This document shows, piece after piece, positions 2,371 to 39,912 of a stretch of 64,000 nucleotides of DNA. The stretch covers positions 32,001 through 96,000 of the forward strand of contig CAVYIM010000007.1 in the NCBI GenBank assembly GCA_963768655.1, given 5' to 3'. The notes under the pieces were generated by a model that searched no databases, was not told the origin of the DNA, and saw only the letters and a list, made by a program, of their open reading frames with translations. The DNA comes from an uncultured Chloroflexia bacterium. GTDB lineage: Bacteria > Chloroflexota > Limnocylindria > Limnocylindrales > CSP1-4. The translations under genes and the position numbers were made by a program. Positions within the stretch are counted from its first letter, which is position 1. Each line of letters starts with the position of its first letter.

Positions 2371-2423
2371 CAGTGAAGGTCCAGATAAGCCGCAGTTGAG
2401 CCGGCCGGCGTAGCGTCGCCGAC
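2371..2423 (+). promoter_or_regulatory. comM promoter: three 11-bp-period repeats (CAGATAAGC-like) + -10 TAGCGT, leaderless GTG
   Basis: cagtgaagg (2371), cagataagc (2382), cagttgagc (2393), 9 nt, tagcgt (2411-2416), 7 nt, GTG at 2424. Confidence 0.6.
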
Positions 2424-3539
2424 GTGCTCGCCTCCTTGCTTTCGGCCACTCTCCACGGCCTGGACGGCCGCATCGTTCGGGTCGAGGTCGACGTCGCCCC
2501 GGGTTTGCCCGGCTTCACGATCGTCGGGCTGGCGGACACAGCGCTGCAGGAGGCCCGGGAGCGGGTCCGAGGGGCGATTCGCAACAGCGGCTATGAGTAC
2601 CCGCCGCGGCGCATCACGGTCAACCTCGCCCCGGCCGATCTCCGCAAGGGCGGCGCTTCGCTCGATCTGGCGATCGCCCTCGGCATCATGGTCGGGTCGG
2701 AGCAGGTGAAGGCGACGGGCCGCTGGGCCGTTCTCGGCGAGTTGTCGCTCGGCGGCGACCTGCGCCCGGTGCCCGGTCTGCTGCCCATGGTCGCCGCCCT
2801 GGCGCGCCGGCGCGTGAGGCGCGTGATCGTTCCGGCCGACGGCGCGGCCGAGGCGTCTCTGGCGGACGGTGTCGAGGTCGTGCCGGCGACGACCCTGGCA
2901 GAGGCTGCGACGATAGTGCGGGCGAACCGGCGGGGGCGGCCGCGGGAGACACCGCCACGCGTGGAACTGGCGGACTCGCTCGGCCTCGAGGCCGACGGCG
3001 GAGTGGCGCGGGACGCAGCGGCGACGCAGGCCTCCGCGGATGGCGGCGAGGCACCGGATCTGGCCGAGGTCAGGGGCCAGCTGGAGGCGCGGCGGGCCTT
3101 GGAGATTGCACTCGCGGGCGGCCACTGCCTGCTCATGATCGGCCCGCCCGGATCGGGCAAGACGCTCCTGGCGAGGACGATCCCGGGACTTCTGCCGTCT
3201 CTGGACGACGACGAGTCACGGGTGGCGACGATCATCGCCTCGGTCGCCGGTCCGTCGCCGATAAAGGGGCTGGTCAGGACGCGACCGTTCCGAGCGCCTC
3301 ACCACACCATCTCCTATGCGGCCATGGTCGGCGGCGGCCCCCACCTGTCGCCGGGCGAAGTGACTCTGGCGCACGACGGCATTCTGTTCCTCGACGAGCT
3401 GCCGGAGTTCGACCGGGGAGCCCTGGAGGCGCTGCGCCAGCCACTCGAGGACGGCCAGATTGCGATCGCGCGAGTGGGCCGGGCGGCAGTCTTCCCCTCG
3501 CGGTTCCAGCTCGTGGCGGCCATGAATCCGTGCCCGTGC
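2424..3539 (+). pseudogene. comM: comM/YifB Mg-chelatase-like ATPase, 5' part, interrupted by integrative element
   Basis: [42 protein letters not shown]; the expected CPCG is replaced by element sequence and a stop at 3572. Confidence 0.92.
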
Positions 3540-5112
3540 AAGTGGGAACTACACACGGGAATCTGTAGGTGACGAGGGCCCTGGCGGTCTTCTTGCCGTC
3601 GGCCCCGACGTCGGTGTGGACGACGATCCCCACGAGCAGCCGGACGAGCTCCTGACGCTGCTCGTCGGTCAGTCCCGCGTCCAGCCGGGCGCGAACCTCG
3701 CATAGGAGGTCACGGGCCTCCTGCGGGACGACTTCGCCACGTGGAGCCTGTAGCGCGCCCACGCGGGCTCCGAGGGCGTCATGCTCGTGTGCGATGCGGT
3801 CGAGTTCGTCGTCGAGTTCGCCGTCGGGAAGCCGGCCGCGGATGTTGAGAGACAGGGCCTGCTTGCGCTGCCCCTCCAGCGCTTCGAGAGCCCGCGCGAG
3901 GGTGATCGACTCCGCCTCGGCTATGGCTCCCTGCGCCTCGCGCTCGGCGACTCCATCGAGTTCATCAAGGACATCGCCTGGGTCACGCAGGAACCGCTCC
4001 ACGTCGGCCCAGACGGCTGGCTCGATGGCCTTCACTCGAACCGAGCAGGATGGGCAGCGACCCGCTATCGGCCCTCGCTCGACCAGTTCGCCGCCGCAGC
4101 GGTATCGGCCCCCGGAGCGGTCTGCGGAGCCGACCAGAGTCAGACCGCACATGCCGCAGTGGATCACTCCCCGCAGCAGGTAGACGTGACCGCTGTTCTT
4201 GGCCGACCGGCGGTTGCGGGCCAGGGCCTCCTGAGCGGCTTGCCATAGGGCAGGGGAGACCAGGCCCTCGATCGGGGCAGACGTGATCTCGTGACCGCGA
4301 CGTTCTGTCTTCTCGCCGCGCTGATCGATCCGCCGGCCGTACTGCAGCTCGCCGCGGTAGACCGGGTTGACCACGAGGTTGCGGATCCGGCCTGCCCGCC
4401 ACAGGCCCTGGGTAGCCTTGCCACGGACCCCTCGCCCATCCCGGGCGTAGTGCGTGGGGATACCCAAGGCGTTGTACTCGCTGGCGATGGCCCTGCAGCT
4501 CTGACCTCGCAGAGCGACGCGCTCGTAGACGTCGCGGACGAGGTCGGCAGCCGTCAGGTCGGCCCAGGCAATGGTCTGGTCGGGCACCAGTCGAGCCTTC
4601 TGCTTGAGCCCGTCCACTCGAAAGCCCAACGGGACTATGCCGCCGGTGTAGCGACCCTCTCTGGCAGCCCGCGCCATCCCGTCGGCGGACTTGCGCAGAA
4701 ACTCGACTCGGGCGTGGTCGTCGACGACGGCCTGGATGTCGAAGGCCAGGGGGCTCTGCTCACCCTCGGCGTAGCTGAGCAGGCGGATGCCCAGATACGC
4801 CAGCCTGCGCCGGATAAGGAGGGTCTCCGGGGCGTCTCGGCCGAGGCGATCGGTCTTGTAGACCCACAGCTCGTTGAACAGACCTGCCGCGGCGTCCCGG
4901 AGGAGCCTTCCACCATCGGGGCGATCCGCCATCGCCACGGTGCCCGGGACGCCATCGTCGCGGTAGCTGGCCACCAGCTCGACTTCGGGCTCGCGAAGCA
5001 GCCAGCGATCGAGAACGTCGGTCTGGGTCTTGATCGTCTCGCGCTCGCGCTGGTCCTCGCTGCTGACCCGCTCGTAGGTCGCAACCCGCCGGACCCCTGT
5101 GGCCACGGTCAT
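3274..5112 (-). CDS. Large serine recombinase 1 (C-terminus runs through attL into antisense comM)
   Basis: YERVSS catalytic motif, DRLGR, recombinase domain (NPVYRG), zinc ribbon CGMCG, coiled coil. Confidence 0.93.
3522..3561. other. attL of element 1 (crossover dinucleotide TG at 3531-3532)
   Basis: 31 bp tgcccgtgcaagtgggaactacacacgggaa (3531-3561) is repeated exactly at 37149-37179; sequence to the left is comM. Confidence 0.85.
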
Positions 5113-5315
5113 CGGATACCTCCCAGACCGCGGTCCGGCAGCTGCCTCGGGAGGCCAAGCACCACCCGCAGCGCAGCGACCATCGCCTCCTGGTCAGGCG
5201 TCCATGAACGCTCTATGTCGAGCGGTCTGGCAAGTCGCTGTCTCTTCGGCGGCGCGACGGAGGTAACTGACGGGGCGGAGGCCAGGTCCAGATCCAGATC
5301 ACGCGCATTCGACAT
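5109..5315 (-). CDS. Small protein coupled to LSR1 (candidate directionality factor)
   Basis: GGAGG RBS, ATGA overlap with LSR start, homolog at 38715-38906. Confidence 0.7.
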   Translation of the reverse strand: MSNARDLDLDLASAPSVTSVAPPKRQRLARPLDIERSWTPDQEAMVAALRVVLGLPRQLPDRGLGGIR

Positions 5316-5372
5316 CCTCCGGTTATGGAGCCACGTGGGGCGGGTGTCACGTCAGCGAACGCGTCGACGCTT

Positions 5373-38718: not shown

Positions 38719-38906
38719 CGGACACCTCCCAAACCGCGCTCGGGAAGCTGCCGGGGGAGGCCAAGCACCACCCGCAGGGCAGCCGCCATCGCCTCGCGGT
38801 CCGGCGTCCATGAACGCTCTATCTCGGGCGGGTTAGCAAGGCGGCGCGGCCAGGGCGTGGGGTTCGCCGCGGCGGACGCCGCGGCGAAGCAGGCGGTGGC
38901 ATTCAT
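38715..38906 (-). CDS. Small protein coupled to LSR2
   Basis: ERSWTPD.EAM.AALRVVLGLPRQLP shared with 5109-5315. Confidence 0.7.
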   Translation of the reverse strand: MNATACFAAASAAANPTPWPRRLANPPEIERSWTPDREAMAAALRVVLGLPRQLPERGLGGVR

Positions 38907-39022
38907 CGCCAACCGCTCGGCCTTCGTTTGCGCCCACTTGCCCGTCACGCCGCTTGGACCTCCGCTCGGCGAGTGCCAGCCCGCCAGCGCTCGCAGGCAC
39001 AGAGAATGACGGCCTGGCCTTG

Positions 39023-39739
39023 CTATAGCGGTGGTGCTAATTCGCGCGGGACCCTCACTGGCAGGCCCACCTGAGTCCATGTTCGGCGATTGGTGAGACA
39101 GACCGTGCGCTGGTAGTCCCTGAGCCGCTGGCGGTCGACGGCGTTGGCGCGACAGCCTGCCTTCAGGACCGCGTGCATGTCTGGGGCGGCCAGGGCGCCG
39201 TCGGATTCGCATTCCCAGCTCAGCCAGGTCCTCACGGCACGAAGATGGCTGAGGCCAGCGTCGCGCAGTCCAAGGACGACCACAGCGCGGGCCAGGATCT
39301 CCCGCGACATCGTCTTGCGCTTGTCGTCCTGGCGGCCCGTCAGGAAGGCTCTGAGGAAGACCGCCACATTTGGATCGTCGGCGATCTTTCCTAGACGGCG
39401 CCGGGCAGTGTCGCGGTCCCGGATGATCTCTCCGCTGCGAAGTCGCAGGTAGGGCCCGACGACATCGAACGAGATGCCCGAACGGCCCAGGGGCTTCTCA
39501 GACGCGTCATCGTCACGGACCCACCACTGGCCGTCGGCCTCCAGGTACTTGTGCCAAGGCGCCGCAGCGAGTACGTCCGCGGAGGGCTTTGAACCAACCG
39601 GGTCGTACGCTGGAGCAGCCATCTTGACCCAGCGAGCAAGCACGTCGGCCGGAGTCAGGGCCTCCATGTCGGCGAGAACGTCGCTGTACCAGGCGTGCCA
39701 CTCGTCGATCGGGTAGATGAGACGCGCGCGGCTCGGCAT
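39023..39739 (-). CDS. Hypothetical protein (start uncertain)
   Basis: Protein-like ORF between promoter and small ORF. Confidence 0.55.
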   Translation of the reverse strand: MPSRARLIYPIDEWHAWYSDVLADMEALTPADVLARWVKMAAPAYDPVGSKPSADVLAAAPWHKYLEADGQWWVRDDDASEKPLGRSGISFDVVGPYLRLRSGEIIRDRDTARRRLGKIADDPNVAVFLRAFLTGRQDDKRKTMSREILARAVVVLGLRDAGLSHLRAVRTWLSWECESDGALAAPDMHAVLKAGCRANAVDRQRLRDYQRTVCLTNRRTWTQVGLPVRVPRELAPPL

Positions 39740-39875
39740 GCTCCACAGGCTAGCAGCGGCCGCTGGCCCGGCCATCGGATGTCGTGGGTCGGGACGCCTG
39801 TGGCATCACCCTCGCTGGCTCGCTCACCGTCGTCCGGCATCGGCCCGGTCACAGAGCGGAGCCCGACCCGGTCGG

Positions 39876-39912
39876 ACCATAGCGAACGCCGCTTATCTGC
39901 GGCTTATCTGGA
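39876..39912 (-). promoter_or_regulatory. comM-type promoter of element 2
   Basis: tccagataagccgcagataagc (20/22 identical to 2380-2401), 9 nt, -10 TATGGT. Confidence 0.7.

Follow-up and report, generated by a model that had tools for sequence, protein, structure and literature searches.

In a 64,000-nucleotide stretch (the window) of a Limnocylindrales (Chloroflexota) metagenome-assembled genome (3.37 Mb, completeness 88.6%, labelled G000), we found that the host gene comM, which is interrupted, and two phage-like elements, of which element 1 lies at the break in comM, share one promoter architecture, made up of two or three GATAAG-type direct repeats in 11-bp phase and a TANNNT -10 box at a constant distance from them. 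Direct reading of the three sites confirmed a common motif reported in a preliminary description of this DNA, where the elements had been thought to copy the promoter of the gene that they disrupt. We consider it probable that all three sites belong to a single competence-type regulon of the host, which the elements have come to share. The same box stands before comEA-comEC, a comFC-like gene and radC elsewhere in the genome, in keeping with the candidate competence-regulon motif put forward in that description.

Promoter architecture at comM and the two elements

The comM promoter (2382-2426, forward strand) comprises repeats at 2382-2390 and 2393-2401 in 11-bp phase, with the cores GATAAG (2384-2389) and GTTGAG (2395-2400), a gap of 10 nt, the -10 box TAGCGT (2411-2416) and, after a further 7 nt, the leaderless GTG start codon at 2424. 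On the reverse strand, the element 1 promoter (6515-6560) carries three 11-bp-phased GATAAG repeats (cores 6558-6553, 6547-6542 and 6536-6531), 10 nt and TAACGT (6520-6515), whilst the element 2 promoter (39876-39912, reverse strand) carries two exact CAGATAAGC repeats in the same phase (cores 39908-39903 and 39897-39892), 10 nt and TATGGT (39881-39876), with a conserved block at 39787-39874 downstream. Both repeats listed earlier for element 1 are present, although a third in-phase repeat had been left out of that list, and the 9-nt gap given there counts from the C after GATAAG and equals the 10 nt counted here from the hexamer core. When the whole genome was ranked with a position weight matrix (PWM), the element 2 promoter received the top score and the element 1 promoter the second. 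No sigma-70-type -35/-10 pair was found at the element 1 promoter, and an Rfam scan of the window, seven regulon loci and seven comEA loci returned no family for promoters or leaders, its sole match being an unrelated c-di-GMP-II riboswitch.

The repeats lie on one face of the helix at approximately -41 to -20, at a constant distance from a weak -10 box. For SARP promoters, published work gives direct repeats 11 or 22 bp apart, a 3' repeat 8 bp from the -10 and an afs box at -40 to -19 (PMC10936776). Here the gap is always 10 nt past the hexamer core, equivalent to 7-8 nt past the 11-nt unit and in agreement with that rule. The SARP/OmpR-type layout proposed in the preliminary description is borne out, with the host regulon repeats positioned as in promoters of this type. 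Same-strand GATAAG pairs, counted across the whole assembly at spacings of 6-30, occurred nine times at 11 bp, three times at 22 and once at 17, with none elsewhere, so that the histogram shows the 11- or 22-bp direct repeats of SARP/OmpR-type sites.

The composite architecture is clearly non-random, unlike the single 9-mer. With at most one mismatch, the 9-mer matched the window 11 times against 6.0 ± 2.8 expected (11 or more in 7 of 100 shuffles), which is no clear enrichment. The composite of two half-sites five bases apart, N10 and [TC]ANNNT, on the other hand, had 10 matches in the genome at period 11 with gap 10, whereas none of 15 other combinations of period and gap had any, and in five related genomes it had 18 matches while the reversed pattern had none. 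Chance clustering of an AT-richer word within the intergenic DNA of a GC-rich genome would fit the lack of significant enrichment of the 9-mer in the window, but it is contradicted by these spacing controls and by the conservation controls at comM and comEA described below, leaving it a negligible probability.

The -10 assignments of the preliminary description also fit the leaderless geometry seen throughout the genome, in which TANNNT lies 6-7 nt before the start codon of 108 long, high-GC3 open reading frames (ORFs), compared to 3-21 at other gaps. Leaderless transcription from a -10 box appears to be a general habit of this organism, and this genome-wide habit therefore supports both the -10 assignments and the predicted start points. 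Among the 23 listed regulon promoters, 14 are leaderless, a count made by eye, as was that of the Xre boxes given below.

Copying, or specific mimicry, of the interrupted gene's promoter had been argued from a 20/22 identity between comM 2380-2401 and the element 2 repeat pair, which is correct in the frame used there. This identity is confined to the repeats and the -10, with flanks and spacer at background: comM agrees with either element at 1-2 of 8 spacer positions, 7-10 of 23 upstream and 6-7 of 19 downstream. Over its 22-nt repeat pair, element 2 is nearer to the promoter of a CoA-transferase gene (21/22) and to that of a secreted protein (L001, 20/22) than to comM (19/22, or 20/22 in the earlier frame), whilst the best partner of the comM pair is an Xre promoter (20/22). 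When the element promoters were compared with the genome by blastn, no comM match was returned, and a 26-nt match to the CoA-transferase promoter and a 35-nt match elsewhere on C3 were found. Because element 2 is closer to another regulon promoter than to comM, the likeness between elements and comM is better described as a regulon consensus, and literal copying is very improbable.

Members of the probable regulon and their conservation in relatives

A PWM scan together with hand reading gave approximately 23 box-bearing promoters in the genome; three sites that the PWM had mis-registered (comFC, an Xre gene at C3:28 kb and the lamin-tail protein) were read by hand. The box is a cis-element shared by several genes of DNA uptake and processing, beginning with comM itself, which was identified with Pfam and NCBIfam. 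Upstream of comEA-comEC the box has three repeats and is followed by a 35-nt leader carrying a Shine-Dalgarno sequence. Box-bearing radC scored above its NCBIfam cut-off, whilst the comFC-like gene encodes a double zinc ribbon (DZR) and a phosphoribosyltransferase (PRTase) domain and finds its best NCBIfam matches, under their cut-offs, in GntX/ComF. Further boxes precede a RecJ N-terminus (recognised by eye), a UvrD/PcrA-type helicase gene, a protein of over 1000 aa (lamin-tail and OB-fold domains, weakly matching ExeM/NucH nucleases), six Xre-type genes, a 1139-aa STAND protein ending in a winged helix-turn-helix (wHTH) and BTAD (SARP) domain, and a secreted protein without known family. Although dprA was not found in this assembly, relatives have it 3 nt behind comM (TIGR00732, 207 bits, above cut-off), so that the comM box should also serve dprA.

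The comFC-like gene ends a row of cpaE/cpaF(tadA)/tadB/tadC-like genes of the tad-type pilus (G000 C3:180866-187873, reverse strand), and another cpaE-like gene immediately precedes comM (window 1095-2300). Since the comFC-like gene and comM both adjoin cpaE-like/tad genes, this hints at a Tad-type pilus serving DNA uptake.

A single cis-element before comEA, comEC, comF, comM, dprA and radC is the arrangement of known competence systems, namely CRP-S/Sxy in Pasteurellaceae, the ComX cin-box in streptococci and the ComK boxes in B. subtilis. The box described here differs from these in sequence, in its tandem-repeat layout, in its leaderless targets and in lineage.

ComM relatives assign the window to Limnocylindrales/Limnocylindria (Chloroflexota), a lineage represented by metagenome-assembled genomes alone. 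Conservation of the box was assessed at 42 of 71 comM loci, with 28 omitted as belonging to other phyla or as fragments and one (L034) as lacking the 5' end. Among these 42 Limnocylindria loci, 22 have two strict half-sites in register with the -10 and 39 have at least one, compared to 0/42 for controls inside the gene and on the reverse complement. All 42 carry a -10-like hexamer 6-8 nt before the comM start codon, and more distant comM relatives have up to five repeats, with the GGTGAG type more frequent. Upstream of comEA, the box was found within 260 nt in 18 of 27 family loci (control 0/27). The preliminary description had named absence of the motif from other competence genes and from comM orthologues as the outcome that would speak against it; instead, the element is kept before the orthologues of both genes in related genomes. 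In the five relatives, 13 of the 18 motif promoters precede homologues of box-bearing genes of this genome, these being comM, comEA (2), radC (2), comFC, the SARP-STAND gene, Xre (2), the MazE-like gene and the secreted protein (3). In the sister family f2, with genomes of approximately 1.1 Mb, no box was seen by eye before comEA in any of three loci.

More distant comEA leaders (L103, L104, L107-L109, L112, L113, L115-L120 and L122) contain a conserved stem-loop of approximately 10-12 bp with a GUGCCCC-containing loop, located between the box promoter and comEA and matching no Rfam family at gathering score. The short comEA leader of this genome does not have it.

The interrupted comM gene and the two elements

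The 5' part of comM (YifB/Mg-chelatase-like) extends from 2424 to 3540 on the forward strand, and its homology ends at approximately residue 372, within an NPCPC motif. The break point was set by tblastn with ComM proteins of relatives, whose full-length orthologues have 522-531 aa. The 3' half of comM is absent from this 88.6%-complete assembly, and no Mg_chelatase_C domain was found anywhere in it. The relatives L023 and L027 have their comM broken at this very position.

The large serine recombinase gene of element 1 (3531-5112, reverse strand; Resolvase, Recombinase and Zn_ribbon_recom domains) abuts the break with its 3' end, and its DNA homology to element 2 begins at 3531. Its reading frame runs 85 codons past the end of that homology, antisense to comM, as far as 3274. 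Between promoter and recombinase, an ORF of 372 aa (5373-6491, reverse strand) belongs to no Pfam or PHROG family and has no similarity to its element 2 counterpart. Upstream of the promoter on the same strand are an ORF of 136 aa (6677-7087), which matches phrog_226 ('minor tail protein') and is also present in L130, and a XerC/D-like tyrosine recombinase gene (7213-8184; Phage_integrase and SAM-like N domain). The comM and element 1 promoters are convergent (window 2424-5112); if both fire, comM transcripts would be antisense to the recombinase gene.

The preliminary description had treated comM as the host gene disrupted, but element 2 does not adjoin comM in this assembly. Behind its large serine recombinase gene (37069-38811, reverse strand) come AAA_25, ParB-methylase and DUF5763 genes in the same orientation (33937-37174). 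As in element 1, an ORF, here of 250 aa (39023-39775, reverse strand) and without family match, separates recombinase from promoter, and a tyrosine recombinase gene (40275-41210, reverse strand) is 83% identical to the element 1 copy. The serine recombinases of the two elements are 69% identical, whilst the ORFs in between are not related to each other. PHROG and Pfam searches of the ORFs that separate promoter and recombinase revealed no recognisable directionality factor.

Directly after the -10, a conserved block of approximately 88 nt (6426-6513, reverse strand, in element 1) is common to both elements and to the related loci L126, L127 and L130. The promoter and this block together are 85% identical between elements 1 and 2, compared to 73-78% at the DNA level for the recombinase genes; the block stops abruptly and the sequences further downstream are unrelated. 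It could be a small RNA, an attenuator, the start of a short peptide or a DNA site. A peptide reading (MPDD...) is possible by eye, and a terminator-like hairpin follows the block in element 1 (6402-6380). As a structured RNA, the block was rejected on stability z-scores of +0.5 and -0.1 and on compensatory change in 0 of 22 predicted pairs, in an alignment with three rows without their 5' 20 nt.

Five related recombinase loci were compared, of which four are assessable, L129 having no upstream DNA. Three of these four (L126, L127 and L130) adjoin comM and keep three or four repeats, the 10-nt gap, the -10 and the 88-nt block, which argues that the box is an inherited, conserved part of the element family. 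Element 1 and these three loci thus interrupt a gene that belongs to the host programme and have a large serine recombinase at their end, and, to judge by sequence alone, the recombinase is under a promoter of the same programme.

Candidate regulators and possible purposes of the proposed wiring

The sequence of one box-bearing gene product makes it a candidate for the factor itself. The SARP-STAND protein P0003 scored 43.5 bits for BTAD and 21.5 bits, below cut-off, for Trans_reg_C, and the best solved relative of its SARP domain is that of AfsR (8hvr, E 6e-8), from which it differs in having this domain C-terminal to the ATPase and TPR parts, in the reverse order. The protein is present in 24 of 30 family genomes, and its gene is a regulon member in both G000 and G024; a paralogue at C4:355.7-358.9 kb has no box. 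In the genomes of family f2, a shorter SARP-domain homologue is present in 25 of 30.

A second candidate is an Xre-type family that combines a helix-turn-helix (HTH) with a domain bearing a D...E.K signature. An AlphaFold model of one paralogue (pLDDT 87.7) gave matches to HipB/HigA-type HTH proteins and weak matches to the restriction-like endonuclease part of R2 (TMq ~0.34), which suggests that the second domain may adopt a PD-(D/E)xK fold. At family level the Xre family tracks the box, being found in 29 of 30 f1 genomes and 0 of 30 f2 genomes, and at least 14 of 28 Xre promoters carry the box. These Xre paralogues could bind the box, as activator or as repressor. Copies of this leaderless family, in which an HTH is joined to a restriction-endonuclease-like part, number 2-9 per family genome, many with internal stops; in G000 they are located at C5:207751-208560, C3:885369-886088, C4:679229-679954, C3:27638-28381, C6:50640-51227 and in the C5:165079 region.

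Several observations weigh against the reading of a host competence regulon shared by the elements. Four of seven same-genus genomes gave no SARP-STAND gene, and no BTAD domain was found in G008 (94% complete) or G044 (91%), both of which keep the box. Since these are two motif-bearing relatives in which no BTAD protein was found, the SARP protein may not be the factor; as a universal regulator it is weakened by the two absences together, and it is at best one of several factors. The preliminary description had proposed a motif scan of the competence genes, recA and pilus genes: comEA-comEC and the comM orthologues carry the motif, whereas recA has no box, a nearby 9-mer sitting within the neighbouring tgt-like gene, and no strict box was found in the surroundings of two T2SSE/tad ATPase loci, so that membership does not extend to recA and the pilus genes. 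Among known competence regulons, membership of recA and pilus genes is not universal. The comFC-like motif is degenerate and was missed by the PWM, and some box-bearing genes are not evidently connected with DNA uptake (those for the CoA-transferase, a periplasmic binding protein, BrnT and a MazE-like protein), so that the regulon may reach beyond competence. At one of the related recombinase loci, L128, this promoter is missing. Lastly, the host box could be an operator, as a promoter with only a -10 may not need an activator.

With these reservations, the wiring that we propose for the host regulon and its elements is as follows. A transcription factor would recognise two to five head-to-tail copies of G[AG]T[AG]AG(C), 11 bp or one helical turn apart, the last of which ends 10 nt before a TANNNT or CANNNT -10, so that the box takes the place of a -35 at about -41 to -20. 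Transcription would start 6-7 nt past the -10, often right at the start codon. The regulon comprises genes of DNA uptake and processing (comM(-dprA), comEA-comEC, the comFC-like gene, radC, recJ, the UvrD-type helicase gene and that of the nuclease-like surface protein) together with regulators, namely the Xre-HTH/nuclease-fold paralogues and the STAND protein with SARP domain. Phage-like elements of one family insert into comM by means of their large serine recombinase and carry the box, in two to four copies, before an operon of the variable ORF and the recombinase gene. As this operon bears the host regulon box, we infer that recombinase expression follows the host competence-type signal. 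The architecture, its non-random occurrence, the gene set and the conservation in relatives and in related elements are shown; binding of the box by an activator, induction of the regulon at competence and excision as the result are presumed.

How such a wiring would be used is less certain than its existence. One tentative possibility is that the competence regulon acts through a SARP-like box on leaderless promoters and that the element leaves at competence, rebuilding comM-dprA, which would make a reversible, competence-gated interruption. An equally simple and equally tentative alternative gives the same wiring another purpose: the recombinase would fire in competent recipients, where an element taken up as DNA or newly arrived would integrate into comM without delay and shut down the transformation able to cure it, and excision would not be the step under control. 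This integration would accord with a promoter that drives the integrase itself, with the lack of a recognisable directionality factor, with an insertion that parts dprA from the comM promoter and with the same comM site being broken in L023 and L027. However, large serine recombinases are also needed for excision, and a directionality factor may have gone unrecognised among the variable ORFs that separate the two.

Slightly less probable than either use of the wiring, in our estimate, is that the repeats serve as an operator for a repressor, for example one of the Xre paralogues, just upstream of promoters with only a -10, in a stress or DNA-damage regulon in which the element promoters would resemble prophage induction promoters. 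This genome has many leaderless promoters with a -10 alone, the box stands before six Xre-type genes, the Xre family is distributed over f1 and not f2 genomes as given above, and a stress response would accord with the helicase, recJ, radC and toxin-antitoxin genes. Against this repressor, comEA-comEC, comFC and dprA are genes of DNA uptake, not repair, recA is without a box while a LexA gene is present in the genome, and helically phased direct repeats replacing a -35 are the classic layout of an activator, as described for SARP promoters (PMC10936776).

Both halves of the proposed scheme, the SARP-like promoter logic and the element logic, are already known, and what is new is their combination at comM-dprA in Chloroflexota, together with the box. 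In the SARP promoters of Streptomyces (AfsR/afsS, ActII-ORF4 and DnrI), repeats at helical-turn intervals likewise replace or overlap the -35, the last of them at a fixed short distance from a weak -10 (PMC10936776). In contrast to these, the sites described here belong to another phylum, have another repeat sequence in up to five copies, have mostly leaderless targets and control a regulon of DNA uptake rather than antibiotics.

On the side of the elements, B. subtilis skin (in sigK) and SPbeta (in spsM) are large serine recombinase elements that likewise interrupt a gene of a host programme, with a recombination gene, spoIVCA or the directionality factor gene sprB, under a promoter of that same programme (PMC4191935), and excision timed by competence would therefore have a precedent. 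The system described here differs in that excision is a prediction, the programme would be competence and not sporulation, no terminal mother cell exists to absorb the rearrangement, control falls on the recombinase gene with its ORF, and the 3' half of comM is missing from the assembly. In Listeria, the comK prophage is a case of active lysogeny: inserted in a competence gene, it works as a switch by excising without lysis. In contrast to comM, the gene interrupted in Listeria encodes a regulator, comK, and the mammalian cell provides the cue; the abstract of the source describes no promoter motif shared by host and phage (PMC7397523).

Our literature search found nothing on competence control in Limnocylindria, with no mention of Chloroflexi among the matches listed. 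If the proposed regulon is real, it would give Chloroflexota its first cis-regulatory code for DNA uptake, and, as the class is uncultured, the conserved box before comM-dprA, comEA-comEC, comFC and radC offers a testable handle on whether, and under what timing, these abundant soil and freshwater bacteria take up DNA. It also extends the SARP-like layout of repeats instead of a -35 to another phylum and physiology, and provides a sequence-level case of a mobile element whose recombinase is plugged into the regulon of the operon that it interrupts, a case of relevance to the conflict in which such elements and transformation are engaged. The box could further be used for finding regulon members and candidate regulators across metagenomes.

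Minor features were recorded both elsewhere in the genome and in the window. The c-di-GMP-II riboswitch found by the Rfam scan is of the GAG type (c-di-GMP-II-GAG, 63.8 bits, L013:3329-3411, forward strand, corresponding to G000 C6 at approximately 106.7 kb); it is adjoined by two duplicated box-like sites (C6:106617 and C6:104769) with near-identical downstream sequence, and no tRNA was found there. Within the window, an insertion-sequence-like repeat of approximately 1.5 kb with a 441-aa ORF is present in three copies that are 99.7% identical (47301-48807, 50098-51604 inverted and 26444-27348 partial), and further repeats, tandem or nearly so, lie inside long ORFs at 20170-21492 and 62454-63529, where a 670-bp unit has 93% identity and units of approximately 140-bp period have approximately 70%.

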